Position numbers and translations under genes: made by a program. 64,000 bases of DNA. It comes from Macrostomum lignano. Taxonomy: Eukaryota. Positions 1 through 38,518 of this stretch are shown here, piece after piece (position 1 is the first letter of the stretch; each line of letters starts with the position of its first letter). The stretch lies in assembly GCA_002269645.1 (NCBI GenBank), contig NIVC01001470.1, positions 5,944-69,943 on the forward strand, given 5' to 3'. A model generated the notes under the pieces. It did not search any database. It had not been told where the DNA came from and worked only from the letters and a program-made list of their open reading frames with translations.

Positions 1-3000
1 TTGCAGATGCTTGGCGATCGGGTACGGCTTGCACTGAATTGGTTCCGTGTGCGGCAGAAGTTTGATTTCCTGTTTGATGTCCTTGGCTCGTCCGATGTCG
101 TAATCATGATGGCAGAAGGCTTCGTTGTACTTCCACAACAGCTGTCGAACTTTCCTCTTTTGCTGTTCCGTAATCGGGCTGTCATCCAAATTGATCTTCT
201 TTTGAAATTCTTCCTCTGTTAGTCGTGGAGTCGCTTGTTCAATCAGCATAACCGATGCTTGGGTGTTGAGATGACCGATGCACATTCCTTGTCGTAGATG
301 AACCGTTTCTGTGTTCGGGTTGAAGATTTGTACTGGCAGTTGCTTATCCTTTGCAACCAGCACTAGTGCCGTAGGCATCATGATTTGATGTTTTGCCGTG
401 ACTCTCCTGTGTGGATCAAATATCATTGCTTCATCTGCCGCGCTGGTCGTTTTCGCTCTGACCCAGCATGCGCTTTCAGGCTGGATAATGACATCTTGCT
501 GCAGAGTTACTTTCGGTAGTACTCGAATCTGGTTGATCAGCGGTTGCTCCACCGTGTCGATCCTAAACGTTTGCTTGTTGAAGTCGAAGGTCAATGGTAG
601 TTGAAGCTGCTTGAACGTGTCGATTCCAACGATGACGTCTTGGTTTGGTAGTCTGTCGATGATGTACGTCGGGACCGTCAGCTGTTTATTAGCAATTTTC
701 AAGTCGATATCTGCTTTTCCTAGGATGTTGAGTGAATGTCCTCCTGCTCCTGCAACTGCGATTGCTGCTGGTCGTACCGCGAGTCGTAGCTTGTTGCATA
801 ATTGTTGCGAGATGACTGTGATCGAGCTGCCTGAATCCAGTAGTGCTCGACATGGCAAGTTGTTGACAATGACCTGAGCCATTGCTTTGCCAATCTCGGC
901 GTGTAGCGTACAGACGTAGTTTTCCGGCCATTTTGGCTCGTGCTGTTCTGCTTGATAGTTGGGTGGTTGTATCCTTGGTGCCGTTGGTGTTGTCGGAATC
1001 GATGGATATAGCCGCGTTGCTAGTGTCGGTTGCCCTTGAACCTCACAATGTGCAGTTTCTGTTAGTTCTAAACTGTTGTCGCTTTCCGTTGTCGTTCTTT
1101 GCATTATGGCATTCACTGTCTTCTTAGCTCTTGGACAAGTTTGACTGAAGCACCGTACGATCGATGAAATGATGAAGATTGCCGTGACAATCCACACAAT
1201 GCAAGCACCGTAGAAGATGAATCCTTGATAGAGACTGCCTCTTCCATTGAGCAGCTCCCAGAAGCTATTTGTCCAAAATGATTTGATGGCGCTGTCCATT
1301 GAAACAAGGACGGGAAATCTTCCTGTCCCGGTTCCTTTGTCCTTTCTTGTGAACAGCTGGTGAATCATCTTGCGTTGGGTGATGAACGCTTGCAAGAAGT
1401 CGTTGATCGTCCATCCTGGTGTTATCTCGTCAAGTTGGATATCGGCGAATGGCGTATACTTCGTTCTGTTGAATCGGATTTTCAAATCCTCCATGTCGTA
1501 GTTTTCGTCGACGATTACTTCCGGTTCTGTGACGTTTGCTGTCGTTCCAGTTGTTTTGATGACGTGTAGTGCATTGTCCAGTTGATAGTAGTTTACTGCC
1601 GTGGTGCAAGGTCTCGGTATTGCGGTGCCAACGATGATGTTGTGTACCGTGTCCAAGAATCCCTGAATTCGTTTTCCTTCGTAGAACGCTTCAATCCTTG
1701 GCTTATCGTAGCAGGTTGTTGACGTGTTTGACGGCAAGATGTTAAAGTGCTGTATCGGCGTGCACTTGTATATCAACAGATGCTCGTATATTGGAACTGC
1801 CAAAACGTTCGTCATTCCGGTGATTTTACGAAAAGTCATCGTAGGGTTGACATAGTAGTTTTGTCTGGCATAATTTAAGTTGATTGCGTGCATTTTGCAA
1901 GTTAGCTGGACCAGTGTTCGATGCAAGTGGTTTAACTGGTTGTGTAGATTGTGATCCAAAGCCGTTATCTTTGCTGACAACAGCCGGTTTGACACCAGTT
2001 TGGGACGTTCGATGTCACGTCGTCTTCTATTCTGTTTTTCTTGTTGCTGATACGTTCCATTGATGATTGCCAAGAAGGTTTGTTTGTCTTCATCCTTTAC
2101 GTAGACTGGTATCTCTTGTTCCGAGATGAATAGTGTCTTGTCTGTATCCTTGCATTTCAGTTTTTGCTCGACTGGTTTCTTTTGAAACGTCAGTGCCAAG
2201 TCTCCTGACTTTGCCAAAAACGTATTTGACAGTAGTCCTCCTTCAACTGTGTGATACTTTTGAAGCTTGCAGTCAATTTCCGGCTCAACTTCCCACGCGA
2301 AGAAGTATTGTCGTGATTTGTACGGTTCCTCATAGTGTGATTGTGCTCTGTGCTCAATCTGCCATCGATAGTCTTGATGATATGTTGGACTCAGTGGTAG
2401 ACTGTGTAGTTCTTCCTTCCGTAGAATCGGCGTTGGACACCATCCTTCACTGTATCGACATTCGCTTAGTTGCAGCTGTAACGATTCCATTTTCTCGTAC
2501 GGATTGTAGTAGAATGGAATATTTCTGATCAAGTAGCTGTTGCGTGCCATATATTCTTTCCATTTTCCGAAGAAGTGAATATATCGACCGTTGGCTGAAT
2601 TCTTTGTTCTGAACAGCTGTGCGTTGCCGACCTTCTCATCTGGTTCCAGTTCACCATCCTTTGAAAATAGTGTTTGATTCCATTGTAGGCATTCCGCGTG
2701 CGACACATGTAGCTCATGTTGTTTAAATCGGATCCGGTTCCATTGTCCGCGCCAAACTTTTTCCACCAGGTGCTTGTCTCTGAAGCATACTATCCCGTGT
2801 TGTCGATGCTTCTTGATGTTAGCCTTGTAGAGATCGAGTGTAATCTTCTTTGGTTTTGTCTGGTTTGTCTTGAAGTAACTGCATTTGATGTCGGTTGGTA
2901 TCTTGTAGATCATCGGTTGGATATGCGCATCCGTTGGACAAATCATTGGCTTTTCCGTTGCCGTTGCTTTGGCGACTACTGCTATCAGTAGTATCACGAT

Positions 3001-4869
3001 GATCCAGAATAGCCAGTTTTTCCACTTCTTGGATTTTGCCGTTGTCCTTGCTGGCATTGGCTGCGATCGCCATTCGTTATCTTCCATGTCCGCATCATAT
3101 TCTTTCGGTTGTTCCATTGGCTGATCCAGGCGGAAGGCTTCTGATTCGCTTTGCTTTTTGGTTATTTCATTATCTTCGTCTGCGGCTTCTTCCGATGTTT
3201 CCGTTGTTTCACTCCATTGCGTTTGGTATCTTTTCTCTGTCTTGTAGTCGACCGTTTGAATATAGGCTTCACCATTTCGTTTGTATCGGATCTCGTAGCA
3301 TTCGTCGCTGTCGGAACTCGGCTTTTCTTTCACCTGTTCTTTTTCCATTTCTTCATCTTTCCATTGTATTTCGTAGCCTTGATCGCTGTCGGAACTTAGA
3401 TTCTCCGCTCTCGGTTCTTCCTGCATTCCTCTTTCGGCTTGGTAGTCGTTCGTGTCATCACGCACCTCGCAGTCGTGGTCGTTGCCGTAACTTCTACATT
3501 CTTCTTCTTCTTTCATTTCTTTGTCTTTCATGCTCGTTTTGTCGTCATCCACTGTTGTCGATTCATAGTTGTTTTCTTCGCCGGTTTTCATCTTTTCTTC
3601 GTTGCCGATGTCGCTCTCCGCCTCCTCCCTTGTCTTGTGATTTACTTTCTTCCTGTTTTCTCTGCTGTCTCCGGTGGTCTCTTTTAATTTGATCATTTCG
3701 GTTTCATTCGTCTCTTTCGTGTTGTCAGTGTTGTCCTCGTGCGTCGTCTTCTTTTCGATCAAGCTGATGTCAAGTTCCGGGACTGTGAAGTCCATTTCCA
3801 AGTCGTCAATTGTGAACACTTGCTGTTCTTGCTGTTCATTTTCCGGTGTGTACGTGATGGCATTCGCGTATCGTGGCATTGCTTGCGTCGGCTGTCTTTG
3901 TGTGTATCTGACGTTGCGTGGCCTGTAGCCATTACTTCTGAAGCGGCCTTCGTTTCCGAAGCGGCCATCATTTCCGGAGCGGTCATTATTTCCGAAGCGT
4001 CTATCATTTCCGAAGCGTCTCATTCCTTGTTGTTGGCGATTTTGATAGTGCTGCCATGGTTTCTGCGGCTTCTGATTGTTGAATATCTGTCGCGGCTTGT
4101 CGTATCTTGTTGACCAATGAGGACAATTAATCTGATAATGTCCTTCTTGTCCGCAGTAGTAACATCTGGCTGAGGCTTGTTCATTTCGTCTTTTTTGTTC
4201 GGCGATAGCAGCTGTCTGGTGCTGCATTAACTTGTTTAGTTGCTGCGTCAGTTTCTGCACTTCATTGTTGCCTGTCGTCATTAATGGGGCACTGGCTTCC
4301 CATTGCATTCCGCAACGCAAAAGGTCTTCTTCGGTTTCGATATTTTCACGCAAAAGTCTATCCCGAAGTGACGGCTGTGCGTTGTTTATTACGTGCAGGA
4401 TGAGGTTTTGTTCACGATCCATCAATCGTTGTCTTTCTCTGGCGGCCAATTCTGCCGCTCCCAGTGGTGGTTGGTCCGCAGCTTGCAGCGGTGGCTGATG
4501 CAGTGCCTTAATTATCTGGCGGATATCGTCCACAAAGGCGAGGAAGGATTCTGTTGCTTGCATCCTTCTGTTATGCAACTTGTGCAGCAGCACTGATCTG
4601 TTTGTGCCGCAACGGTTGAAATGCGCGCGCAGTTGAATGATTAGTGCTGGATAATTTTGCTGTGTTGCCGCATCCAGCTTGCCGTAAATTTCTCGCGCAG
4701 TACCTTGGAGAAGAGGTGGCAGCAGCTGTGCCTTCTCTGGATTTTGTAGGTTGTATTCCCTACATACCAGGTCAAAATGGTCGACAAATGTGTTAAAATC
4801 TTTCTCCATCGAGAAAGTACCGACCGTTTCTTTGATGTCTCTGTGTACCGTTGGATTGCGCCGCGCCAT
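1..4869 (-). CDS. Gag-Env-Protease-Pol polyprotein, single ORF, at least 1623 aa, 3' partial
   Basis: Translated in 60-nt blocks from ATG 4869 to position 1 with no stop or frameshift. The nearest upstream in-frame stop is TAA at 4992-4990. Absent from the ORF track because it has no stop in the window. Confidence 0.92.
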   Translation of the reverse strand, partial: MARRNPTVHRDIKETVGTFSMEKDFNTFVDHFDLVCREYNLQNPEKAQLLPPLLQGTAREIYGKLDAATQQNYPALIIQLRAHFNRCGTNRSVLLHKLHNRRMQATESFLAFVDDIRQIIKALHQPPLQAADQPPLGAAELAARERQRLMDREQNLILHVINNAQPSLRDRLLRENIETEEDLLRCGMQWEASAPLMTTGNNEVQKLTQQLNKLMQHQTAAIAEQKRRNEQASARCYYCGQEGHYQINCPHWSTRYDKPRQIFNNQKPQKPWQHYQNRQQQGMRRFGNDRRFGNNDRSGNDGRFGNEGRFRSNGYRPRNVRYTQRQPTQAMPRYANAITYTPENEQQEQQVFTIDDLEMDFTVPELDISLIEKKTTHEDNTDNTKETNETEMIKLKETTGDSRENRKKVNHKTREEAESDIGNEEKMKTGEENNYESTTVDDDKTSMKDKEMKEEEECRSYGNDHDCEVRDDTNDYQAERGMQEEPRAENLSSDSDQGYEIQWKDEEMEKEQVKEKPSSDSDECYEIRYKRNGEAYIQTVDYKTEKRYQTQWSETTETSEEAADEDNEITKKQSESEAFRLDQPMEQPKEYDADMEDNEWRSQPMPARTTAKSKKWKNWLFWIIVILLIAVVAKATATEKPMICPTDAHIQPMIYKIPTDIKCSYFKTNQTKPKKITLDLYKANIKKHRQHGIVCFRDKHLVEKVWRGQWNRIRFKQHELHVSHAECLQWNQTLFSKDGELEPDEKVGNAQLFRTKNSANGRYIHFFGKWKEYMARNSYLIRNIPFYYNPYEKMESLQLQLSECRYSEGWCPTPILRKEELHSLPLSPTYHQDYRWQIEHRAQSHYEEPYKSRQYFFAWEVEPEIDCKLQKYHTVEGGLLSNTFLAKSGDLALTFQKKPVEQKLKCKDTDKTLFISEQEIPVYVKDEDKQTFLAIINGTYQQQEKQNRRRRDIERPKLVSNRLLSAKITALDHNLHNQLNHLHRTLVQLTCKMHAINLNYARQNYYVNPTMTFRKITGMTNVLAVPIYEHLLIYKCTPIQHFNILPSNTSTTCYDKPRIEAFYEGKRIQGFLDTVHNIIVGTAIPRPCTTAVNYYQLDNALHVIKTTGTTANVTEPEVIVDENYDMEDLKIRFNRTKYTPFADIQLDEITPGWTINDFLQAFITQRKMIHQLFTRKDKGTGTGRFPVLVSMDSAIKSFWTNSFWELLNGRGSLYQGFIFYGACIVWIVTAIFIISSIVRCFSQTCPRAKKTVNAIMQRTTTESDNSLELTETAHCEVQGQPTLATRLYPSIPTTPTAPRIQPPNYQAEQHEPKWPENYVCTLHAEIGKAMAQVIVNNLPCRALLDSGSSITVISQQLCNKLRLAVRPAAIAVAGAGGHSLNILGKADIDLKIANKQLTVPTYIIDRLPNQDVIVGIDTFKQLQLPLTFDFNKQTFRIDTVEQPLINQIRVLPKVTLQQDVIIQPESACWVRAKTTSAADEAMIFDPHRRVTAKHQIMMPTALVLVAKDKQLPVQIFNPNTETVHLRQGMCIGHLNTQASVMLIEQATPRLTEEEFQKKINLDDSPITEQQKRKVRQLLWKYNEAFCHHDYDIGRAKDIKQEIKLLPHTEPIQCKPYPIAKHLQ
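600..880 (-). other. Retropepsin (aspartic protease) domain
   Basis: ALLDSGSS with catalytic Asp at 835-837, flap-like VAGAGG, and C-terminal VIVGID motif. Confidence 0.9.
1156..3036 (-). other. env: Envelope glycoprotein domain (signal peptide, ectodomain, furin site, heptad repeat, TM), probably class III fusogen-like
   Basis: Signal-like KSKKWKNWLFWIIVILLIAVVAKATA (2959-3036). About 580-aa Cys-containing ectodomain with CRYSEGWC and at least 6 N-x-S/T sequons. NRRRR-DI at 2017-2028, then LSAKITALDHNLHNQLNHLH. TM FIFYGACIVWIVTAIFIISSIV (1156-1221). Confidence 0.8.
4123..4869 (-). other. gag: Gag region: capsid-like helical domain plus CCHC nucleocapsid zinc knuckle (4123-4164)
   Basis: aa 1-249: DFNTFVDHFDLVCREYNL...LHKLHNRRMQATESFLAFVDDIRQIIKAL (retrotransposon capsid-like), then CX2CX4HX4C, followed by an R/G/N-rich RRFGND repeat. 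Confidence 0.8.
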
Positions 4870-5520
4870 GTTGTTGATAGGGTAGAACGGTAGTTCAAGA
4901 TCTGGATCGATTTGTAACGGATCGTCCAGTGTGGTGTTTGCCTCGGAATAAACCTCGACTGTAACGAATTGCCTTGTGGTGTCGATTTGTTATTCGCTGG
5001 CCTCGGATGCGGTGTGGCTTGCTGCCACTGGTTGTCCTCAAATGAACTTGTTCTGTTCGCTTGCTGATTTCGCACTTATGCGGCGTCCCGCAAAGTGTAT
5101 CTTCAAGTTGAAGTGGACTTGTCTTCTTGCTTTGCAAAGTCTTTCTTCTCTTCTTTGACTCTCTCTCTTTTGTCAATTAACTCTGCTCTCCACGAAGTTT
5201 CAATTAATTTCGGTTTTGTTTTAGTTTTTGTGCCGGCAAAATGTTTCAGTTATTTTTTGTTTGTTTTGCGTCGACGATTCTTTTTATTTTTGGTTTGTTT
5301 TCAGTGTACCGACGAAGTTAATTTCGGTTTTGTTTTAAACTCACACTTGCTCGAGCTCGTCAAAACAAAATTTTAACACGCGTGCTCAAACTGTACTCAA
5401 ATTTGACAGGTGCTCAAACCTGTACACCAAATTTTACTCGAGTTTCAAAACGTAACGGACCTAAAAAGTGTTAACTCTAACACGTGCGCGCAAAATTAAT
5501 GAAGTCGCTCTGTCGTCACT

Positions 5521-6326
5521 TTACAATAGCTTGGCCAGGCTATTGCTCAAGGTTTGAGTAGTGCCGAGAGGGCGAGATCACCAATTGATGTGTTCCTTAT
5601 TACCCGACTTTCGATAATCAAGGAACAATCACTTCTAGCTCAACAGCTAGGCAACCCAGTAAGTCAAACGAAGGTATTCAATTACCTTTAATCCGGATTT
5701 GAATTTCTTGAGTAGTTCTCGCTAGGAACTTGTCAGTAGATCTCGTAGATCAGGCGCCTTGATTCTTCAGTTGCTCTGGTCCTGGTTCCTCTTGTACTTC
5801 CGATAAGTTCTTCCGGCCGGTATCTTCCGTCAGGACCAATCAGAGGCCTCGTAGCAACAATGGGTACCCTGCGCCAAACTGCGGTCTAAATTAAGCCTCC
5901 TTCTTCTAGCAGTGCCTCTATGCACTCTAGGTATAGCTCCGGAAACCACTGATAGTCCTCTAAGATCTATCAGGGGCAGTCCTTCTGGAGACTGCAACCA
6001 ATGGAGTCTAAACAGACTCAAGAGTCTCAACAGACTCAATTAGACTCAAGTCTCAATAGACTTGAGCGAGACGTCTCTAACACAACGGGCGCAAATAAGG
6101 AAGGCTTACCGCAACAACTCGACCGAGTCTCGATTGACTTGGTAGATCAGGAAGTCCTCCTAAGGCTTCCTCTTCGGAGCGCTCCTCTTCCGTGGGGAGA
6201 ATGGCTCCGGTACCGCTTCAGATCGCTTGTATTTATAGACAAGTTTTTGATCCAAAATAGTATCATGACAATTCACGTGTTGCGCTAAAAGGGGAAAATG
6301 GCTCATGGCGTATTATTCTGGTAACA
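5521..6326 (-). repeat. Putative 5' LTR
   Basis: The minus strand begins TGTTAC at 6326 and ends GTAA at 5521 (imperfect inverted termini). It contains TATAAATA at 6237-6230. The partner LTR is outside the window, so the boundaries are inferred. Confidence 0.5.
6230..6237 (-). promoter_or_regulatory. TATA box of LTR promoter
   Basis: TATAAATA on the minus strand about 90 nt inside the LTR start. No ATG occurs on that strand between it and the gag ATG. Confidence 0.6.
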
Positions 6327-7037
6327 TCTTTTTCTGGTAGCGTGATTCATTCAAAGCTTAGGCGCACATGCGTGTACTTACTTACTTATAGTAGTATTAT
6401 ACGATTATCTTCTTTTTTCCTTTTTTAACGGGAGGTAGAACACTCTACAATATATAGCGCCTGCGGCACCAAACACGAGTTCCTGCAGCGCAAAAAATGC
6501 CTGCGACGCCAAATGAGCGCTGACAACACCGATTCTAAAAATAATGTAAAATGTTAAAATGTATAATTCTTGCGGCTTAATTTGTTCCCCACCATAAAAT
6601 CAATCTTGTGACGCCCCTGCCACAACAGTACATGTAACTCACAAACCTTCTGTCGTAAATGCACATGCAAGTCGTATATAGCCAGTAGAAGTGACTAAAA
6701 AGAGAATCAAAGTTGTAGATGGGGTTGGTACATGTTTGTTAGCCCGACAAACGACGAGAGTGTAGGCCTGAAGCCATAACCATGCCTAGACTCATTCGTC
6801 TTTTTCTCTTTTGATTTCCATTTACCTTAAGATATTGAGTTTAAATACTTTTAGTATTTTTAACATTAATTTACTTGCACTTCTTATTCATACAGCGAAA
6901 ATATTTTTACTTCCTTTTAAATATTAGTTGACGTATGCTCCGGTATCTGAGGCTTACTCTATGTTTCAAGTAAATAATTGTCGTAAAACACGAAAATGTT
7001 CATGTATTACTACCACATTAAAGACAGTGTTGCCTAG

Positions 7038-7195: not shown

Positions 7196-8968
7196 ATGTG
7201 GCTGTCGAGCTTTTTGGCATTTGCTCTGCTTGCTCTCGCATGCGGTGAAGTTTACTTCAAGGAGGAGTTTTTAGATGGTAAGTTAGTTCTCGCTCTGACG
7301 TTTATTTTGTTTAGATTCTCAAATTCCCTTGTGTTGCTGCAATACTAGAATAGGGCATTGTCTTGTTGGTTTTCTTCATTTCAACCATATCAGAATATTA
7401 AAGTAACTAAAAATAGTATTGAAATCATTCCATTCTTTTTAACTTTGCACATTCAAGCAGTTAAAATAACCCCCTTGTGTTAGCTTTGCATTTTGTTCTA
7501 AAAGAATAAACTGTGGTTACTGGTTTACTTTTTTATAGTTTTTGAAAGATAATTCATTAAAAAGGCTTCTATTATTGAGTATGAGAGAGAAAGGAAGTAT
7601 AGGTTTCTAGCTAGCTACTTTAATTTAATTGTAACATATTATAAGATTGTTTTATAACTTCACAATTTTTTTGTTTCCTTAAAGACTATTTGTATATATA
7701 TATATTGCCTATCTTTACATTTTTCTATGTTTCTCCTAATGTAAAATCCTTTGATTTAAATATTTATTTTTTTCTTTTAATTTTAATTATATGCTTTGCT
7801 AATTTGTCTTCACAAAATATTTATTTCAGAGTCATGGAAGGATCGGTGGGTAGAGTCAACCTACAAGGGTAATGACCAAGGCAAATGGGAATGGACTGCT
7901 GGCAAGTTCTACAATGATGCTGAAAAGGACAAGGGAATAAAAACCTCCCAGGATGCCAAATTTTATGGCATCAGTGCCAAGTTCAACTCTCCATTCTCCA
8001 ATGCTGGCAAGACTCTGGTGATCCAATTCCAGGTCAAGCATGAGCAGAACATTGACTGCGGTGGTGGCTATGTCAAAGTCCTTGGCAGCGATGTTGACCA
8101 GAAGAACTTCCACGGCGACACACCCTACAAGATCATGTTTGGTCCTGATATCTGCGGCCCTGGCACTAAGAAGGTGCACGTTATCTTCAACTACAAGGGC
8201 AAGAATTTGCTCACCAAGAAGGAGATTCGCTGCAAGGATGACGAGCTAAGCCACCTGTACACCCTGATTGTGAAGCCTGACAACACCTACGAGGTGCTGA
8301 TTGACAACGAGCGAGCCGAAGGTGGAGAACTCGAGGCCGACTGGGACTTCCTGCCACCCAAGAAGATCAAGGATCCGGCCGCCAAGAAGCCAGACGACTG
8401 GGACGAGCGCGAGAAAATTGACGACCCGAACGACAAGAAGCCGGAGGACTGGGACAAGCCCAAGACCATCCCGGATCCCAAGGCCAAGAAGCCGGACGAC
8501 TGGGACGACGAGATGGACGGCGAATGGGAGCCGCCGATGATTGACAACCCGGACTACAAGGGCGACTGGAAGCCCAAGCAGATTGACAACCCGGCCTACA
8601 AGGGCAAGTGGATCCACCCGGAGATTGACAACCCGGACTACTCGCCGGACCCCGAGCTGTACAAGTACACCGACATCGGCGCCATCGGCTTCGACCTGTG
8701 GCAGGTGAAATCTGGCTCCATCTTCGACAACGTCTTCGTTGGCGACGACCCGGCCGAGGCCAAGGCCTTCGCCGACGAGACCTTCAAGAAGACCGTCGAA
8801 GGCGAGAAGAAGATGAAGGAGAAGCAGGACGAGGAGGACAAGAAGAAGGCGGAGGAAGAGGAGAAGAAGCGCAAAGAGGAGGAGGAGAAGAAGAAGGCCG
8901 AGGAGGGCGACAAGAAGGAAGCGGACAAGAAGGAGGACGACAAGAAGGACACCAAGGACGAGCTGTAG
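7196..8968 (+). CDS. CALR: Calreticulin; exons 7196-7277 and 7830-8968, 406 aa
   Basis: Exon 1 encodes signal peptide MWLSSFLAFALLALACG-EVYFKEEFLD. GTAAGT...TTTCAG intron with matching phase. KHEQNIDCGGGYVK, MFGPDICG, P-domain repeats (IxDPxAxKPEDWD), acidic tail, C-terminal KDEL. AATAAA at 9086-9091. Confidence 0.97.
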
Positions 8969-10980: not shown

Positions 10981-12600
10981 GTTTGATTCCCATGCAGATA
11001 TTTTGTTTACCCTGCAGATATCTGTTTGATTCCGCTGCAGATTAGCTGTTTGATTCCGCTGAAGATAGCTGTTTGATTCCCCTACAGATATCTGTTTGAT
11101 TCCCCTTACAGATATCTGTTTGATTCCCCTTACAGATATCTGCTTGATTCCCCTACAGATATCTGCTTGATTCCGCTGCAGATATCTGCTTGATTCCCCT
11201 ACAGATATCTGTTTGATTCCCCTACAGATATCTGTTTGATTCCCTACAGATATCTGTTTGATTCCCCTACAGATATCTGTTTGATTCCCTACAGATATCT
11301 GTTTGATTCCGCTGCAGATATCTGCTTGATTCCCCTACAGATATCTGTTTGATTCCCCTACAGATATCTGCTTGATTCCGCTGCAGATATCTGCTTGATT
11401 CCCCTTACAGATATCTGCTTGATTCCGCTGCAGATATCTGTTTGATTCCCCTACAGATATCTGTTTGATTCCGCTGCAGATATCTGTTTGATTCCCCTTA
11501 CAGATATCTGCTTGATTCCGCTGCAGATATCTGTTTGATTCCCCTACAGATATCTGTTTGATTCTCTACAGATATCTGTTTGATTCCCCTACAGATATCT
11601 GTTTGATTCCCTACAGATATCTGTTTGATTCCGCTGCAGATATCTGCTTGATTCCCCTACAGATATCTGTTTGATTCCCCTTACAGATATCTGCTTGATT
11701 CCGCTGCAGATATCTGCTTGATTCCCCTTACAGATATCTGCTTGATTCCGCTGCAGATATCTGTTTGATTCCCCTACAGATATCTGTTTGATTCCGCTGC
11801 AGATATCTGTTTGATTCCCCTTACAGATATCTGCTTGATTCCGCTGCAGATATCTGTTTGATTCCCCTACAGATATCTGCTTGATTCCCCTACAGATATC
11901 TGTTTGATTCCCATACAGATATCTGTTTGATTCCCCTACAGATATCTGTTTGATTCCCCTACAGATATCTGTTTGATTCCCCTACAGATATCTATTTGAT
12001 TCCCCTACAGATATCTGTTTGATTCCCCTACAGATATCTGTTTGATTCCCCTACAGATATCTGTTTGATTCCCCTACAGATATCTGTTTGATTCCCCTAC
12101 AGATATCTGTTTGATTCCCCTACAGATATCTGTTTGATTCCCCTACAGATATCTGTTTGATTCCCCTACAGATATCTGTTTGATTCCCCTACAGATATCT
12201 GTTTGATTCCCCTACAGATATCTGTTTGATTCCCCTACAGATATCTGTTTGATTCCCCTACAGATATCTGTTTGATTCCCCTACAGATATCTGTTTGATT
12301 CCCCTACAGATATCTGTTTGATTCCCCTACAGATATCTGTTTGATTCCCCTACAGATATCTGTTTGATTCCCCTACAGATATCTGTTTGATTCCCCTACA
12401 GATATCTGTTTGATTCCCCTACAGATATCTGTTTGATTCCCCTACAGATATCTGTTTGATTCCCCTACAGATATCTGTTTGATTCCCCTACAGATATCTG
12501 TTTGATTCCCCTACAGATATCTGTTTGATTCCCCTACAGATATCTGTTTGATTCCCCTACAGATATCTGTTTGATTCCCGTGCAGATTATCTGTTTGAAT
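10981..12600. repeat. 23-bp minisatellite (TTTGATTCCCCTACAGATATCTG)n, about 70 units
   Basis: Direct tandem units with palindromic core CAGATATCTG. Variant units to about 11900, homogeneous after that. Confidence 0.95.
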
Positions 12601-15596: not shown

Positions 15597-18500
15597 CTAA
15601 TTAATGGAGAAGGGTGCAGACTTTCTCTTCCTTGCTCCAGTAGGCACAGTTGCCATCGGCGCGACCATGAACTCGTACTCAGGCCTGCTCTCCTCCACCG
15701 GTGACGATTGTCTCACCTGAAAACAATTCAAGATTATAGGAATTAATAAATGTATGCTATATGAAATTCTCAAGATTTTCACACAAAGCTTTTATCAAGC
15801 TTCACAAACTTGGCATAACCCGCCGGCCAATTTTGTGAACAAGTCGCAAATGATCACGTGACCGCGCACGGAATCAAACCAGGGGTCGTGGCGTGAGAGT
15901 CGGATGCGCGTTCACCGCTGAGCTGCCCTGCCCCACCCCTTCCGGAACTTACTTTCGGAGGCTCGGGCGTCACAGAGTCGATCTCGTGAGCCTCCTTTAA
16001 GTGCCGATTGAGTAGTTCGAATGTCGGATAGGAGCCGCCGCACTCTGAGCACAGATAGGCCTCGGCATCGGCGAACTGATGGAGAAAAAAAAAGTTGTTG
16101 CGTCATGCTTCAAAAATGGAGCACAAGATCAACTTATTGAGTCCGCATCACCTCAATGTCATCGACAATCTCGAAGTGCTGATGATAATCGTCTCTGTCG
16201 GACGCGTCTCCAGCATCGATGGCTGAATTATTGTCAAACCGCTGCTCCGAGCTCGACTGAGCCGGTTGCGGCGGCGACAAGGGTGAGGACTCATCTTTTC
16301 CATTAGCAGCATCGGCCAGAACCAGACTGCCGGGAATTTCTGCAGCCTCTTCCTCCCCTGCCTCGGCTTCATCAGCGGCATGGTTCTGAATGACGACTAG
16401 ATTAGAATGCACGCTAGCCAGATGGTCCCGCAGGCGGCCGGCAGTGAGAAAGGCCCGAGGACACTGCGAGCACCGATGCGGCAGGGACAGCAGCGGACCC
16501 TGATCAGCTGTTGAGGGCAGCGTAGGCGTTGAAGCAGCGCGTTAGCTGACGAAGGAGTCATGGCAGCAGTGGCAGCAGCCGCGGCAGCCGCAGCAGCAGC
16601 CGCAGCCCGCCGATGACTCGGTCCGTAGAACTGCGGATGACACTTAGACCGGTGGACAACCAGGCCTAGCGAGGAGGAGAACTGCGACGGACAGATGTCG
16701 CAGGGAAAAGCCAGCGGCTGGTGTTGCGCCGGGTTCAGACGAGGCGCTTTTGCGGCTGGTGGAGCGTCGGCTCCGGCAAAGCTCCTGGTGCCACGACAGC
16801 TGGTTCGCAAGTGGGCCTCCAGCACATCTTTTCGGCAGTAGGTCTTGCCGCAGTTCGGGCAGGGGACTCGCTCGCGCTCCGGCTGGGTAGTTACTCGCTG
16901 CAGCGGCTGCTGGGGTCGTGAGTCAGCTGGGCCAGTCAGACCCATGAGGCTCCTGCGGGTTGCGTGCATTTTGTACATATTAGACTCGGTTTTTTGGTAT
17001 AATTTCTTAGTGTCTTAGATGCTTGCCTATCTGTCTTCTTGTCAGTCTTACCTAGCAACAGAGGGCTGCTGCTGAGGCGGCGCCGGTGGCGGCATCTGCC
17101 GCTGTCTGACCTGCTGCTGAGCAACTTTATTCAGACTGCAGACGGCGGTGTGCCGGTCGAGCGACGCCCTATCAGTGAAAGTCTCGTTGCACATCGAGCA
17201 CTCGTGCTCCTCGTCTTCGCAGTCCAGCAGCAGCATCTGGCCAGAGGCGGCCTCATCCGATTCCTCCTCGTCCTGCTGTCCGAGGTCGCCGCGGCTGTTT
17301 GGAAGAGCAGAGGTGCCGTGCTGCTGGCAGAACCGACGATGGACAGTCAGATTATCAGCGTACTGGAATGTCCGATGGCACATATCGCAGCGGTGGCTGC
17401 TGCCAGTTTCTGGGATCACCTGTACAGAAGTCGACGGACACACTTCAGATTGGAGCTGCTGCTGCTGTTCCTGTTGCTTCTGAGCCTCGCAGAAGTGGCG
17501 CGCTAAATGGCAGGGCATGCGGAATTCGCGATGGCAGAGCTTGCAACTAACCGAATCGTTGGAGTGAACCACGCTGTGCTTAACGAGGTTGGCAGTGGAG
17601 CTGAAGGACCTGCCGCACTCAGTGCAGTCAAATTTGGCTGCAGACTGCTGGCCCGTCGGAGTGTTGGAAGGTCAGATTGATTGAGTCAAGGCGGGAGTTT
17701 ATAGAAAACTGTTTAGTTAAGTTTAAATATTAAATAAACTGCATTTGCTCACACATCATTACAAGATTATAAAAATGTAAGTTTACCTGTAAAACAGCGA
17801 AGATATTATTTGTTGACTTATATTTTGGCATGATCTTCTCAATAATAGTTTTAGGGTTTCTGAATTTGGAATCCTTATAACTGGATCAGATCTGACAGAT
17901 TGACATCGATGAAACACTGTGGGGCAGGGGGCTTCGTTCAAACGAACGATAGACATTAGACGAGGTCCAGTTGCCATAGACTATTACTTTCGAGCTGTTC
18001 AGGGATGATGCGTTTCCAGAATTTCCTCATTCATTCGTGGGGACTGCTTAACTTGACATGCGGACAAAATATGCTGAGCAAAAATGGCCTAATAGCGGTT
18101 TCTGGTAATAACGCTGGTGATTATCAAGTGGTTCCTGCACAACCCCCAATGTAAACCCGTACAATCTACAAAGTAAAGGAAGAATGTGAAACAGCTAAGA
18201 TTGTAGAGGAAGAGGGTAGGGCGTGGAGAAATATGAGAGCAAAGTTTATAGAATAATTACGAGGGGCCTATAAAAGCAAGATCCCATACGTTTTCACCAC
18301 GTAAAAATACTCACATGCGATGTTGATCCGTCCATGGGTACTCCAGCCATGGAGACTAGGTCTCCCATCTCCAGCTCGCCGTCGGCCAGCGCTTCGGCGA
18401 AGCAGCGTCCGAGATGATCGCACAGGAAGTACCTGTCAGCGAAGACTTTGCCACACTTCGGACAGCCGGCCCGAGACGAGGCCGCCAATGTCCAGCTGCC

Positions 18501-20806
18501 AGTGTCAGAGATCTGCAGACGGCCTTCCATGGACAAGTCCTCGCCTCTGTCGCCGCTGTCGTTGCCGTCCTGGTCTAGACAAGCAGCATTGGTCAGTCCG
18601 TTAGAAGACTTCAACACACCGGTGCCGAACTTGTGCACCCGATTGTGCTGAGCCAGGCTGCGCGCCGACGGAAAGCAGGACTGGCAGATGCTGCAGAAAT
18701 GCCGGTCGGGTCGGTCTTGCGATGCCGACATCGACACCGAGGATGGAGATGATGAAGGTGAGGCTTCTGGTGACAGCTCGCCTGGTTCTCTAGCGCTGGC
18801 AGCGGCAGCAGTATCAGATTGACTGACCGCAGCCCAGTGCACTCGAATGTGGAGCAAAAGACTGCGCCGGCTGCTGTGCACTGTGTGACAGAGGTGGCAC
18901 ATGAAGCGGACTAAGCGGTCTGACTCGCCGTCTTCCGACTCGTCATCAGCGGGTGGCAGCGGCTCGTCGGTGGCCTGGTGTCGTTCAACTAGATGTCGCT
19001 TTAACTCATCGGCAGAGCCGAATGCGGCCTCGCAGCAGTGACAGACGAACACGATGTCTTCCTCGTCCCCTTCTTCAACGTCGTTAGCAAAGTCCTCCGT
19101 AGGTTCATCGGCTGTCTGCGGCTGGGTCCCCTGCTTGGACATCGACGGGCCGTACTTGTGAATCCGCAGGTGCTGACTGAGGCTACTGGGCTTGTCAAAT
19201 ACTCGGCCGCACTCGCCGCAACGACAGACCTCGTTGTTAAAGGCATTCGTCTTGATTCTCAGCGTCACCTTGCTCGAAGATGAATCCGGTGCAGCCGTTT
19301 CTGCCGCTGCACCTGTCACTCCACCAGAAATAGACGATGTCGACGCAGTCTCCATCAGCGGCACAGTGATGCTGATACCGTTCTTCTTGCGCGCCTCGCG
19401 TCGCTTTAGCGCTCGCTCCGACATCTCCTTGGGGTTACCGCAGGCGCTAATCTGGCTGGGTACAAATCGAAGAGGAACAATGCCGAATTTTCCAGCCTTC
19501 CACTCCTGGTACTGCTCATGGTGGAAGTAGATGCAGTGCTTGCCCATGCCCTTGGAGAAGATTAGCTCGCCGCAGAACGGACACGGTGTGGCCTGCTTGT
19601 CATCGTCGAAATGGGTGGGGTTAGCAGCAGCGGCGGGCGCGGTTGCGGCTGCTCCTGACGCCTTGTTGCCGTTGCAAATGACTTCAGCAGACGCCGATTT
19701 CACGGAGGGCGGCGGTGTCGACGGCGTGGGTGTGGCCGGATCGGATTCGTCCAACTCAATTTCTTCTTTATCCATCGATCGCTGATCTGCATCCTCTTGC
19801 ATCTCGTCGATGGTAATCTCATCCGACTGCTTTGTGAACTGATCGTACTCGTTGAGCGTCTGGCTGAGGATGTCCGGGTTTGGTTTCACGTAACGCAGCT
19901 GAACGGAGCCGAACTTGCCGTTCTTCCAGCTCGTGTACTCATCGAGGTGGTGATTGACACAATGCTTGGCGAGGCCTTTGATTGTAGTTTTGTGCGTGAT
20001 GCAGAACGGGCAGTTGATGTCGAGTGGATTCTCGTTGGTGTTAAACTCCAACTTGCCTTCCTTGCTCATAAAGAACGGCGCCGTGGTTGCTAGCTGAGTC
20101 TTCAGCTTTGATCGTTTCCCAGGCCGCTGCGCTAGAAGACCATTAGAGCTTGGAATTCTACGGATTGGCTCCGGTGTTGGCGCAGCCTTCGTCTGCAGTT
20201 GCTGGTCGTTGGTGGATGGGCCAGACAGGTTGGTGGAGTCATCATCGACCTCGTCAGCACCATCTAGAACCATGCCTGTGACCAACGGCTCTTCTGTGTC
20301 CTCGACAATCGGCGGGCCCGTCCTTTTCATGGCTACACCAGCAGCACTGGACACGGAAGACTCCTCGGAGGCGTGAAAACTGCGGATCATCTCCTTGGTC
20401 AGGTCCATTAGGCGGATGCTGCGGCCAAACCAGCCGGACTTCCAGGCGGCGTACACACCATTGTGGAAGCACATGTAGTGCTTAGCAACGCCCTTCTTGC
20501 TCTTGATGGTGCCGCTGCACTCTGGGCAGACAATGACGACCTCATCTAGCGACGCTTGACTGACGGAGCCGACGTTGGTCACTGGCACTGTTAGCGTGAG
20601 GATGTCTCCCTTTGCAGCGGACACCATCCGTTGATGGTCGTCGGAGGATGCCGAATCAGCCAAGTTCACCCCGGGCTGGCCCTGCCCACCAGGCTGTGGG
20701 CGTGGTGCTTCTTGCGCAGGTGCTTGTTGAGACTCTTCTCGGACGAATAGGCCTTAGTGCACAGGCGGCAGTGGTGAAACGGACTGTCGTCCAGTTTGAG
20801 GCTCAT
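15597..20806 (-). CDS. Multi C2H2/C2HC zinc-finger protein (about 16 fingers); exons 20806-18315, 17647-17052, 16952-16152, 15716-15597; two apparent 1-nt deletions (about 20700 and 16540)
   Basis: Many CxxC...HxxxH/C motifs. All three introns have GT-AG ends and matching phases (0, 2, 0). Frame switches join finger CRLC...HLRKKH to the 791-aa ORF, and finger CSQC...HLASVH to the upstream ORF. Ends in an NLS-like RKRKS. Confidence 0.85.
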
Positions 20807-33674: not shown

Positions 33675-36600
33675 TCAAGCCAGCAGCGTCTGCAGCGAGT
33701 CCATGCCGATCAATATGGCCGGATTGCTGCGAAAGTAGGAGCAGAAATCTTCCCAACTGATGACGCCGTCCCCGTCGGCGTCCAGCTGGCGGAAAACGGC
33801 CTCCGCTCGCTCCTCCACCGTCACCGAAGTCACTGGCGGACGGACTCGATGTCCGAGAAGGTCGTAAACGGAGCTCACCACTTCGAAGACCTCCCGCCTG
33901 TTGATCTCGCCGTCCTTGTTGGTGTCGTACATGTTGAAGATCCACCCGAGGCGTTCTTCCCGACTGCCTTTCAGCAGGGTGTTGAGGCATAGGGCGAACT
34001 GCTCAAAGCTAACGGAGCCCGTGCGGCCCCGATCAAAGCCGCAGAACACGAAATGGGCGAAAGTGTGCGCATTTCCCAACGGGAAGATCTGCGCCAGGAT
34101 TTGTTCCAGCACCTCCTCTTGCATCAATCCTAAAGGTGGGAGCATTAGAGTGAGTCGTAATCGAGTTGAAAAAATCTACACATCTGAATGCTGAACTCAA
34201 GCCACAATATTCGTATTTTCTGCCGCAATGTAAATTCCTATCGATCTATCTCTAATTCGTTCCAGCCAACCCCTAACAACCCCAAGCCCTGTCCCTGCCT
34301 GTGCAAACCGGCCAACCTCACTCCACTCCTGCCCCTCCAGCAACCCCAGGCTCTGTCCCTGCCTGTACAAACTAGCCAACCTCATTCCACTCCTGCCCCT
34401 CCAGCAGCCCCAAGCCCTGTCCCTGCCTGTGCAAACCGGCCAACCTCACTCCACTCCTGCCCCTCCAGCAACCCAGGCTCTGTCCCTGCCTGTACAAACT
34501 AGCTAACCTCATTCCACTCCTGCCCCTCCAGCAACCCCAGGCTCTGTCCCTGCCTGTACAAACTAGCTAACCTCATTCCACTCCTGCCCCTCCAGCAACC
34601 CCAGGCTCTGTCCCTGCCTGTACAAACTAGCTAACCTCATTCCACTCCTGCCCCTCCAGCAACCCCAAGCCCTGTCCCTGCCTGTACAAACTAGCCAACC
34701 TCACTCCACTTCTGCCCCTCCAGCAACCCCAAGCCCTGTCCCTGCCTGTACAAACTAGCCAAACTCACTCCACTTCTGCCCCTCCAGCAACCCCAAGCCC
34801 TGTCCCTGCCTGTACAAACTAGCTAACCTCATTCCACTCCTGCCCCTCCAGCAACCCCAAGCCCTGTCCCTGCCTGTACAAACTAGCCAACCTCATTCCA
34901 CTCCTGCCCCTCCAGCAACCCCAGGCTCTTTCTCTGCCTGTACAAACTGGCCAACCTCACTTCACTTTGGCTAGTAAACATTTTTTTCTTTTATGCCTCA
35001 TGCTTCACTCATGAGCGTATATGATTGTTTCTCCTATTTGTCTCCCTGCCACAGTATCTATGCAGGAAAACTGAACCACTGGTATGAAGAAAAATAAAGA
35101 AGTTTCCGTATTTTTTCTTTTGCAATTTGTCTTGAAAGACACTATAGAGATACTGAGCCGGAGAAGGCAATGCTAGTCAAAGTGGCCAGATTAGAATGCC
35201 AATCGTGAGAATAAGAAAATGACTTCAAGGCACTTCAACCAGGGAGCTAAAATAGAACCAGGACTGGGAGCTGAAAAAAACACTGGCTGAGCTTTCTCAA
35301 TGCTGCAGCAGCCACTGAAAAAAAGCAAACTGACAAACTGGCAGTCCCGTCACGAAGTGCGGAGAGAGATAGGAAATTGGATCCGACACTCTCCCGCTTG
35401 GCCTTCTTTGCTACTTCTTAGGCAGCTCCCCTATTCCTTCTTTCTCAGATCCGGTCCTACCCCCCTCTAAGCTGTCTCTCTCCCAATCCCCCAGCCTATT
35501 CCCTGCGCTGCGATCCCAGCAGCACAGTTGCTACGCGACGGCAGATGCGCTCGATCGAGAAATTTGGAAGGGAATCGAAAGCTTTATAATTTAAGTACCG
35601 GATCAAGCAAATGATTTAGCTATAATTACTATTTAGCTATTATTCCCATCATTTTCCTAAAAGCTTCTATCTGTCATATTTCCAACCAACAATGTCTCTG
35701 ACTAACGACTAATGATAATTAACTAACCTCATGGCTCCTGACCTCATGGCTCCTGACCTCATGGCTCCTGACCTCATGGCTCCTGACCTCATGGCTCCTG
35801 ACCTCATGGCTCCTGACCTCATGGCTCCTGACCTCATGGCTCCTGACCTCATGGCTCCTGACCTCATGGCTCCTGACCTCATGGCTCCTGACCTCATGGC
35901 TCCTGACCTCATGGCTCCTGACCTCATGGCTCCTGACCTCATGGCTCCTGACCTCATGGCTCCTGACCTCATGGCTCCTGACCTCATGGCTCCTGACCTC
36001 ATGGCTCCTGACCTCATGGCTCCTGACCTCATGGCTCCTGACCTCATGGCTCCTGACCTCATGGCTCCTGACCTCATGGCTCCTGACCTCATGGCTCCTG
36101 ACCTCATGGCTCCTGACCTCATGGCTCCTGACCTCATGGCTCCTGACCTCATGGCTCCTGACCTCATGGCTCCTGACCTCATGGCTCCTGACCTCATGGC
36201 TCCTGACCTCATGGCTCCTGACCTCATGGCTCCTGACCTCATGGCTCCTGACCTCATGGCTCCTGACCTCATGGCTCCTGACCTCATGGCTCCTGACCTC
36301 ATGGCTCCTGACCTCATGGCTCCTGACCTCATGGCTCCTGACCTCATGGCTCCTGACCTCATGGCTCCTGACCTCATGGCTCCTGACCTCATGGCTCCTG
36401 ACCTCATGGCTCCTGACCTCATGGCTCCTGACCTCATGGCTCCTGACCTCATGGCTCCTGACCTCATGGCTCCTGACCTCATGGCTCCTGACCTCATGGC
36501 TCCTGACCTCATGGCTCCTGACCTCATGGCTCCTGACCTCATGGCTCCTGACCTCATGGCTCCTGACCTCATGGCTCCTGACCTCATGGCTCCTGACCTC

Positions 36601-38518
36601 ATGGCTCCTGACCTCATGGCTCCTGACCTCATGGCTCCTGACCTCATGGCTCCTGACCTCATGGCTCCTGACCTCATGGCTCCTGACCTCATGGCTCCTG
36701 ACCTCATGGCTCCTGACCTCATGGCTCCTGACCTCATGGCTCCTGACCTCATGGCTCCTGACCTCATGGCTCCTGACCTCATGGCTCCTGACCTCATGGC
36801 TCCTGACCTCATGGCTCCTGACCTCATGGCTCCTGACCTCATGGCTCCTGACCTCATGGCTCCTGACCTCATGGCTCCTGACCTCATGGCTCCTGACCTC
36901 ATGGCTCCTGACCTCATGGCTCCTGACCTCATGGCTCCTGACCTCATGGCTCCTGACCTCATGGCTCCTGACCTCATGGCTCCTGACCTCATGGCTCCTG
37001 ACCTCATGGCTCCTGGCCTCATGGCTCCTGACCTCATGGCTCCTGACCTCATGGCTCCTGACCTCATGGCTCCTGACCTCATGGCTCCTGACCTCATGGC
37101 TCCTGACCTCATGGCTCCTGACCTCATGGCTCCTGACCTCATGGCTCCTGACCTCATGGCTCCTGACCTCATGGCTCCTGACCTCATGGCTCCTGACCTC
37201 ATGGCTCCTGACCTCATGGCTCCTGACCTCATGGCTCCTGACCTCATGGCTCCTGACCTCATGGCTCCTGACCTCATGGCTCCTGACCTCATGGCTCCTG
37301 ACCTCATGGCTCCTGACCTCATGGCTCCTGACCTCATGGCTCCTGACCTCATGGCTCCTGACCTCATGGCTCCTGACCTCATGGCTCCTGACCTCATGGC
37401 TCCTGACCTCATGGCTCCTGACCTCATGGCTCCTGACCTCATGGCTCCTGACCTCATGGCTCCTGACCTCATGGCTCCTGACCTCATGGCTCCTGACCTC
37501 ATGGCTCCTGACCTCATGGCTCCTGACCTCATGGCTCCTGACCTCATGGCTCCTGACCTCATGGCTCCTGACCTCATGGCTCCTGACCTCATGGCTCCTG
37601 ACCTCATGGCTCCTGACCTCATGGCTCCTGACCTCATGGCTCCTGACCTCATGGCTCCTGACCTCATGGCTCCTGACCTCATGGCTCCTGACCTCATGGC
37701 TCCTGACCTCATCACACAATGACCTCATTACACACTGACCTCATCACACACTGACCTCATTACACACTGACCTTATCACATAGTGACCTCATCACACAAT
37801 GACCTCGTCACACAATGACCTCATCACACAATGACCTCATCACACACTGACCTCATTACACACTGACCTCATTACACACTGACCTCATTACACACTGACC
37901 TCATCACACAGTGACCTCATCACACACTGACCTCATCACACACTGACCTCATCACACAGTGACCTCATCACACAGTGACCTTATCACACACTGACCTCAT
38001 CAAACACTGACCTCATCACACAGTGACCTTATCACACACTGACCTCATCACACAGTGACCTCGTCACACAGTAACCTTATAAATCTGATACCTAACTTTG
38101 CACTTTTGAAGTCCCAATATCTAACCACATATGATCTAATATATCAACTCCATAATCCCTGATCATTGACCTTTATCCGATACTGAGACATTCCAACCGT
38201 ACCGTACGGGCACTCAGACTTGAAGCGCCTGTAGATCGCTTTGAGCTCCTGGCTGGTGAACCGAGTCCGCTGAACCAGGCTGGCCAGGCTGACCGTCCGC
38301 GGCCTCCTGGCGAACAGCGTAAGCTCCAGCTGGCTGGCCTCGTCCGGCAGGTGGCCGCCAAGCACCGCGGCTGATTTCCGGCGCACCTGGCCGAACAGGC
38401 TGGACGGTGCCGATGTGAATCGGCGCAGAAATCGTTGGAGACGGCCGCCGGCGCCCGCGCTTTCCATTGTTGGCAGCGCGATGGCGCCGGATCGCTGCTG
38501 GCGCCGCTGGGCCAACAT
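33675..38518 (-). CDS. KCNIP: KChIP-like neuronal calcium sensor; exons 38518-38203 and 34129-33675
   Basis: [40 protein letters not shown]...[10 protein letters not shown]...[20 protein letters not shown]...[14 protein letters not shown]. The phase-1 GT-AG intron joins the exons in frame. Confidence 0.88.
34262..34965. repeat. 64-bp minisatellite, about 11 units (KChIP intron)
   Basis: GTCCCTGCCTGT recurs at 34291, 34355 and onward. Confidence 0.9.
35726..37710. repeat. 15-bp satellite (ACCTCATGGCTCCTG) x about 132 (KChIP intron)
   Basis: Perfect tandem array except one A>G at 37016. Confidence 0.99.
37711..38075. repeat. 16-bp minisatellite (TGACCTCATCACACAC)n sharing the TGACCTCAT core with the 15-mer
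   Basis: About 22 imperfect units directly abutting the 15-bp array. Confidence 0.9.

Follow-up and report, generated by a model that had tools for sequence, protein, structure and literature searches.

Late-domain-type motifs in the predicted cytoplasmic tail of a gB-like Env suggest ESCRT recruitment by Macrostomum lignano errantiviruses

The window analysed here, a stretch of 64,000 nucleotides of Macrostomum lignano contig NIVC01001470.1 (assembly GCA_002269645.1), carries at its left end, on the minus strand, a Ty3/gypsy errantivirus in which Gag, Env and Pol are encoded in one open reading frame (ORF). The predicted cytoplasmic tail of Env, located after its transmembrane helix and before the protease, combines motifs of the ALIX, TSG101 and NEDD4 types. 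[quoted passage not shown] A sequence-only reading of the window had already proposed ESCRT recruitment by this tail, and on this point it was probably right.

Translation of 955-1011 on the minus strand gives LYPSIPTTPTAPRIQPPNY, which corresponds to ORF residues 1327-1345, or 1287-1305 when counted from the first Met (nt 4869). LYPSI, PTAP and PPNY thus fall inside a 19-residue segment that follows the transmembrane helix and precedes the protease, and this confirms what had been read from the sequence alone. LYPSI starts 46 residues past the hydrophobic helix, which ends at about residue 1281, and the Asp of the protease DSG motif is residue 1385, 40 residues beyond the Tyr of PPNY. P[TS]AP, PPxY and LYPx[LI] have no further matches elsewhere in the 1663-residue frame, and a scan of Gag and the Gag-Env linker of the window family (3016..4869) found no P[TS]AP, PPxY or ΦYPx[LI]. 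The tail is of low complexity and rich in Pro and Thr. When its 76 residues were shuffled, PTAP was obtained in 1.9%, PPxY in 4.6% and YPx[LI] in 3.6% of the shuffles, and all three motifs together in 3 of 200,000. Shuffling of the 32-residue proline-rich core alone yielded all three in 19 of 200,000, and shuffling of the whole ORF placed all three motifs within 30 residues in 0 of 20,000. Since shuffles that keep the composition rarely give the triple, the cluster is not a composition effect.

Protein searches of the genome yielded further gag-env-pol families, with Env identities from 63% down to about 25-28%. We read 39 loci, 37 of them with the protease motif, and grouped them by eye into nine families with one representative each. 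The tail of the window family (F1) carries LYPSI, PTAP and PPNY. PTAP is followed by IYPKI in F2a and F2b, PPAP by LYPKI in F3, PSAP by IYPTI in F4 and PSAP by LYPTL in F5; F6 and F7 have PSAP only, and F8 has none of the motifs. P[TS]AP is therefore found in seven of the nine families (0.23 expected; reached in 0 of 20,000 shuffles) and in six of eight without F1. [LMIV]YPx[LI] is found in six of nine (0.045 expected; 0 of 20,000 shuffles) and in five of eight without F1. PPxY occurs in F1 alone, which is chance level (0.32 expected). Ten permuted control motifs matched in 1 of 80 motif-by-family cells (eight families). Tail identity between lineages is mostly 18-33%, compared with a shuffled baseline of mean 19 and maximum 28; closer pairs, with 43-54% identity, are F2a/F2b, F3/F4 and F7 with F5 or F6. 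The expectation that the motifs are conserved while their flanks diverge thus holds for PT/SAP and ΦYPx[LI] and fails for PPxY. Because PPxY is limited to one family of nine, the conserved core of these tails is the TSG101/ALIX motif pair, and the triple is specific to the window family. YPxI stands ahead of PTAP in F1 and behind P[TS]AP in the four other families that have both, a swap in order as expected of L-domains, which are described as position-independent (PMC7995964). Among the non-representative copies, PSAP is missing from two F7 copies that are broken and is not read in one F6 copy with a frameshift.

The Gag-Env linkers, which are also predicted to be cytoplasmic and are longer than the tails, contain ΦYPx[LI] in none, P[TS]AP in one and PPxY in two of six families. 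The idea that PPxY has shifted to the linker where the tail is without it was considered and found not persuasive (two of six linkers against 0.36 expected, reached in 461 of 10,000 shuffles); in one of the two linkers PPxY lies in an RGG-like low-complexity stretch. The linkers vary widely in sequence and length (126-370 residues). That of the window element (3016-4120) has 370 residues, is strongly acidic and contains an SSDSD-x-[GC]-YEI motif twice.

A HMMER search of database proteins returned 55 entries. Leaving out 15 that stop short of the helix, four without a tail and P0002, which belongs to the window family, 35 tails were compared, one of them F5 itself; tails in which no protease was found were limited to 200 residues. 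P[TS]AP is present in six of the 35 (0.30 expected; 0 of 5,000 shuffles) and [LMIV]YPx[LI] in three (0.16 expected; 1 of 5,000), and six permutations of PT/SAP gave no match in these tails. PPxY is again at chance level, with two occurrences (0.62 expected; 619 of 5,000 shuffles). With these counts, all three motifs together are not supported as a general feature of such elements; PPxY is kept only within the window family. In a quick Env tree of 43 rows, the nine families grouped with P0005 and P0006 (SH-aLRT, the Shimodaira-Hasegawa-like approximate likelihood ratio test, 99). PT/SAP or ΦYPx[LI] is present in 10 of the 11 rows of this clade, and any motif in 6 of the 32 rows outside it. By sequence, the module belongs to this clade, with sporadic cases outside it that include a Haemonchus protein. 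P0004, a protein of a sister family listed under Macrostomum lignano at NCBI, shares its tail sequence with loci L104-L106 of this genome. When the Env alignment was used in two word-indexed searches for homologues, every protein returned came from the same host or the same family (two hits in one search and one in the other).

Within the window family, 21 tail haplotypes were obtained from 78 loci, which by a manual count represent 47 distinct places. [LM]YPSI and PPxY are present in all 21 and PTAP in 20, the remaining one reading PPAP. The x position of PPxY varies between N, T, I and G while P, P and Y are constant, and the sole change at the first residue of LYPSI is to Met. Of the 10 core motif positions, 1 shows an amino acid change, against 25 of the 58 remaining positions of the tail (Fisher p 0.045). 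In the window copy, the three motifs lie in a 99-nt stretch (948-1046) with in-frame GT...AG ends, and the database gene model P0002, from a close copy, skips exactly the 33 motif-bearing residues. We considered P0002 as a natural motif-less lineage and rejected it as a probable gene-model artefact, since it also skips other Gag, Env and Pol blocks and is fused to unrelated sequence. Among the 24 sequencing runs listed, 19 contain the stretch, none of these being recorded as RNA.

An AlphaFold model of the Env ectodomain was obtained with a predicted local distance difference test score (pLDDT) of 74.5 and a predicted template modelling score (pTM) of 0.43. In a Foldseek search with this model, the top matches were all herpesvirus glycoprotein B (gB), herpes simplex virus 1 gB being matched with an E value of 8.8e-21 at a TM-score of only 0.36. 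In a viral library, the ectodomain also matched chu-, nyami- and rhabdo-like glycoproteins. According to the model, the ectodomain is a class III, herpes-gB-type fold flanked by two hydrophobic segments. The model and its matches support the earlier assignment of the motif-bearing segment to the cytoplasmic tail of Env. From the two hydrophobic segments, Gag is predicted to be cytoplasmic, the ectodomain lumenal, and the tail with all of Pol again cytoplasmic, which would put the motifs within reach of ESCRT adaptors. The first segment would start translocation and the second would halt it. Cleavage by signal peptidase after the A-x-A site that follows the first segment would leave Gag and Env-tail-Pol as separate chains at a ratio of 1:1. 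Two regions of Env differ between relatives: about 38 residues at ~2314-2430 (Env residues 174-211) are absent from the profile match in most distant relatives and are modelled with low confidence, and in the F5 Env (P0004 residues ~1025-1210) about 185 residues, Thr-rich and mucin-like, are inserted ahead of the furin-type site.

The host genome encodes ALIX, in which the KFY-EL segment is kept with its pocket Phe, presumably F676. HECT ligases are many, counted irrespective of whether they bear WW domains. A TSG101 UEV domain is also encoded (locus L071, 1471-1875), with an E value of 1e-44 to the human domain. It keeps M95, Y68 and N69, and the mutation M95A in TSG101 is reported to impair PTAP binding (PMC7073217).

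These observations lead us to propose the following course of events. The polyprotein would be threaded into the membrane of the endoplasmic reticulum, where signal peptidase would separate Gag from Env, and the tail, protease, reverse transcriptase and integrase would remain on the cytoplasmic side, extending Env. Both Env-tail-Pol and Gag with its signal anchor would then collect on a membrane. There PT/SAP would bind the UEV domain of TSG101 and ΦYPx[LI] the V domain of ALIX, so that ESCRT-III would sever the neck of a particle budding away from the cytosol. In the window family, PPxY would open a third, accessory route by way of NEDD4-type ubiquitin ligases. Finally, the protease would cut between Trp and Pro ahead of its own domain, releasing Pol inside the particle. 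This W-P dipeptide precedes the protease in eight of the nine families and in several database relatives and may be a candidate N-terminal cleavage signature; we take it to be comparable to the aromatic-Pro sites cut by retroviral proteases. With Gag and Env derived from one chain, the tail would supply as many late domains as Gag would. If Pol is attached to the tail, prompt scission before the protease frees Pol would matter, and such timing is reported to matter for HIV (human immunodeficiency virus; PMC4900648). L-domains are further described as independent of position and often combined (PMC7995964, PMC8402826, PMC2958808).

We put forward more tentatively, and with somewhat less than even confidence, that in this clade signal peptidase cuts Gag from Pol co-translationally and that protease, reverse transcriptase and integrase are carried into the particle on the cytoplasmic side of the fusogen, as its extension, the late domains being on the Env-Pol chain. 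If this is true, the fusogen would be Pol carrier and ESCRT recruiter at once, and scission would be tied to Pol packaging. Even ordinary retrotransposition would then proceed via an enveloped, ESCRT-released particle, an assembly route unlike that of Gag and Gag-Pol. An extracellular, infectious particle, as suggested in the sequence-only reading, would be one possible product; budding into endosomes or another internal compartment and sorting of Env only are also compatible with the motifs.

It seems rather unlikely, although this is the main rival explanation, that ESCRT is recruited to sort Env or Env-Pol into multivesicular bodies (MVBs), exosomes or lysosomes, in which case the tail would serve trafficking or turnover of the fusogen and not scission of a particle with Gag in it. 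Such sorting would yield an identical conservation pattern, and cellular proteins are reported to bind TSG101 through PSAP (PMC7073217). Herpesvirus gB, which shares the ectodomain fold with the Env described here, is also reported to be ubiquitylated and sorted to MVB membranes (PMC7995964). Its passage through the MVB pathway is credited to ubiquitylation in that source, whereas the Env tail of the window element carries explicit PT/SAP and ΦYPx[LI] motifs and runs into Pol. With Pol fused behind the tail in one frame, Pol shares the destination of the tail; degradation would destroy the replication enzymes, and loading of vesicles without Gag and RNA would be unproductive. In addition, the pair of PT/SAP and YPxL is the arrangement described for lentiviral p6 (PMC8402826). 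A different function has to be considered for the Tyr motif, which might be a YxxΦ signal for the clathrin adaptors AP-1/2/3, leaving PT/SAP as the only ESCRT-related motif or as incidental. YPSI fits YxxΦ, and a generic YxxΦ is present in seven of the nine tails (2.7 expected; 60 of 20,000 shuffles). Such motifs steer Env trafficking in HIV, murine leukaemia virus (MLV) and Mason-Pfizer monkey virus (PMC1592117), whose Env tails have YxxΦ as here but no PT/SAP. A YxxΦ signal leaves P[TS]AP in seven of nine families unexplained. Moreover, in each of the six Tyr motifs found at family level, position +1 is Pro and position -1 is L/M/I, as the consensus of the ALIX motif requires and YxxΦ does not. 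The conserved Pro and hydrophobic residue point to ALIX rather than to YxxΦ adaptors, and we regard the adaptor explanation as improbable.

We give very little weight to the view that the proline-rich segment is a mere flexible spacer or protease cleavage context whose motifs arise from its Pro/Thr/Ser-rich composition. The low complexity of the tail, the location of the Tyr motif 3-4 residues ahead of W-P in F3-F5 and the chance-level frequency of PPxY would fit it, whereas composition-preserving shuffles and permuted motifs fall short of the observed counts and the distance between motif and W-P ranges from 3 to more than 40 residues across the families. Judged by these comparisons, this view is already largely refuted for PT/SAP and ΦYPx[LI]. 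Just as doubtful is a role of splicing, by which Gag would be joined to the tail as a p6-like extension, or the motif segment would be skipped and the motifs made optional. The GT...AG ends of the 99-nt stretch and the exact omission of its 33 residues in P0002 speak for such an event, but the other omissions and the fusion in this entry resemble a gene-prediction artefact, and the single gag-env-pol frame is open in several families.

Several observations weigh against an L-domain module for particle release. Conservation indicates that the motifs have a function, not which ESCRT job they do. A motif-free tail is found in 26 of the 35 database relatives, whose Env is of the same kind, and in F8, and the module is therefore not needed by every gag-env-pol element. 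The nine families represent about four lineages, so that the shuffle counts overstate independence, and the Env tree comes from a quick search and has long branches. PPxY is not enriched, PPAP replaces PT/SAP in F3, F6 and F7 are without a Tyr motif, and one non-representative F2 copy reads PNAP. In the window family, the non-motif neighbours at residues 1330 and 1332-1334 are likewise unchanged; given this and the shallow divergence, conservation within the family is weak support. The host TSG101 UEV domain has His at Tyr63 and Val at Phe142, both of which we take to be residues of the PTAP groove, and PTAP binding is hence not to be taken for granted.

The element, its gene order and its Env class are already known, as its primer-binding site and the length of its long terminal repeats (LTRs) match Mlig_errantivirus_2. 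This element is among the GAG-ENV-POL errantiviruses with gB-type Env reported by Chary and Hayashi (PMC13524379), with which the window element shares the gene order, the gB-type Env, the 864-nt LTR and the 12-nt primer-binding site. The window copy exceeds the listed Mlig_errantivirus_2 by about 1.1 kb and has two RING-like frames after pol. In the same report, GAG-ENV-POL gypsy elements with gB-type Env are described from nematodes, bryozoans and flatworms, and the case for enveloped particles of non-insect Ty3/gypsy elements rests on intact frames and predicted folds. Its main text has no mention of late domain, ESCRT, PTAP, budding, cytoplasmic, tail or polyprotein.

The triple is not new by itself, and a location outside Gag is not new either. 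All three motif classes are reported in one protein for MLV Gag (PSAP, LYPAL and PPPY; PMC8402826), as in the tail of the window family, and bluetongue virus NS3 is reported to carry PSAP and PPxY on a viral protein that is not a capsid protein (PMC7995964), likewise comparable to the non-Gag location found here. HIV-1 p6 combines PTAP with YPXnL, and in the window element, too, the motif segment stands right before the protease. Unlike retroviral late domains in Gag, the motifs are located on Env past the transmembrane helix, and the element's own Gag has none. NS3 of bluetongue virus is a membrane protein. In contrast to the Env described here, it is non-structural, is no fusogen, belongs to a non-enveloped double-stranded RNA virus and has no polymerase behind it. 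In the literature as covered by titles and the beginnings of abstracts, with subscription papers outside, we did not find a retroelement fusogen whose tail bears a late-domain module that is conserved in a clade and has Pol on the same chain. The recurrence of two of the three signals in most of the distant relatives within the genome suggests release of these elements as enveloped particles by pinching off. The motif pair on the predicted cytoplasmic side of Env is sequence evidence, distinct from intact frames and predicted folds, of ESCRT use by ancient envelope-carrying Ty3/gypsy elements, and late domains would extend from capsid and matrix proteins to the tail of a fusogen. The pair also names host partners, and as the host seems to be a flatworm kept in laboratories and carries recently copied elements, the question becomes testable.

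The features of the element are listed in Table 1. The frame at the left end of the window (1-4989, minus strand) runs open to the window edge and encodes Gag with a CCHC knuckle, an acidic linker, a signal-like hydrophobic segment, the ectodomain, a second hydrophobic helix, the tail and a retropepsin. [quoted passage not shown] Domain searches of the element gave the Pol order protease, reverse transcriptase, RNase H, then integrase, with env between gag and pol, and a purine tract precedes the 3' LTR. By its domain order, its Pfam matches and its correspondence to the published element, it is a Ty3/gypsy errantivirus, and by the primer-site 12-mer and the LTR length it matches Mlig_errantivirus_2. 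In a genome search, at least 10 matches at full score with 100% identity over 2.4 kb were found among the best 40 of 93 candidates, which indicates that the window family was copied recently.

Table 1. Features of the errantivirus in the window, in window coordinates
Feature	Position	Strand	Remarks
Pol continuation (tether into reverse transcriptase)	1..591	-	reverse transcriptase, RNase H, integrase past the window edge
Retropepsin protease	592..927	-	catalytic DSG at 829-837; Pfam Asp_protease_2 E 1.1e-9, RVP E 3.5e-6
W-P, putative protease N-terminal cleavage site	925..930	-	W-P dipeptide; cleavage predicted by analogy
Env cytoplasmic tail / spacer to protease, ORF residues 1282-1354	928..1146	-	between hydrophobic helix and W-P; predicted topology
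PPNY, NEDD4-WW-type PPxY motif	955..966	-	specific to window family
PTAP, TSG101-UEV-type motif	976..987	-	from translation of the tail
LYPSI, ALIX-type ΦYPx[LI] motif	997..1011	-	also fits YxxΦ; last residue Ile instead of Leu
Env C-terminal transmembrane helix, ORF residues 1256-1281	1147..1224	-	hydropathy peak 2.43; helix 573-602 of the model
Class III fusogen ectodomain (herpes gB / chu-, nyami-, rhabdo-like G)	1225..2949	-	furin-type RRRR at 2017-2028
Internal signal peptide / signal anchor between Gag and Env	2956..3015	-	hydropathy peak 2.41, then A-x-A site; predicted cleavage
Gag and acidic Gag-Env linker	3016..4869	-	CCHC knuckle at 4123-4164; first Met nt 4869
Primer-binding site	5572..5583	-	12-mer identical to that of Mlig_errantivirus_2
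5' LTR, 864 nt, TG...CA	5586..6449	-	99.8% identity to 3' LTR; 4-bp ATAT target duplication

Downstream of pol, the two tandem frames contain paired zinc fingers of a RING-like type (matches to Pfam zf-RING_2 / Sina_RING at E 2e-4, below the cut-off). The first has a Met-Gly, myristoylation-like start reminiscent of arenavirus Z, and no late motif was seen in it by eye. Homologues with 41-44% identity adjoin the F2 family, and the frames are broken in many F1 copies. From their sequence, they could be a source of ubiquitin ligation or membrane targeting. The idea that the CERV protein of Cer1 is a RING protein like these accessory frames found no support in passages of PMC10309623 and was dropped.

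Elsewhere in the window, a host calreticulin gene (7196-8968, plus strand; Pfam E 1.5e-85) lies about 750 nt from the 5' LTR, its direction of transcription leading away from the element. A frame of 819 codons that encodes C2H2 zinc fingers is located at 18294-20753 on the minus strand. Tandem repeats are a minisatellite with a unit of about 20 nt at 10990-12000 and a near-perfect 15-nt array at 35588-37740.

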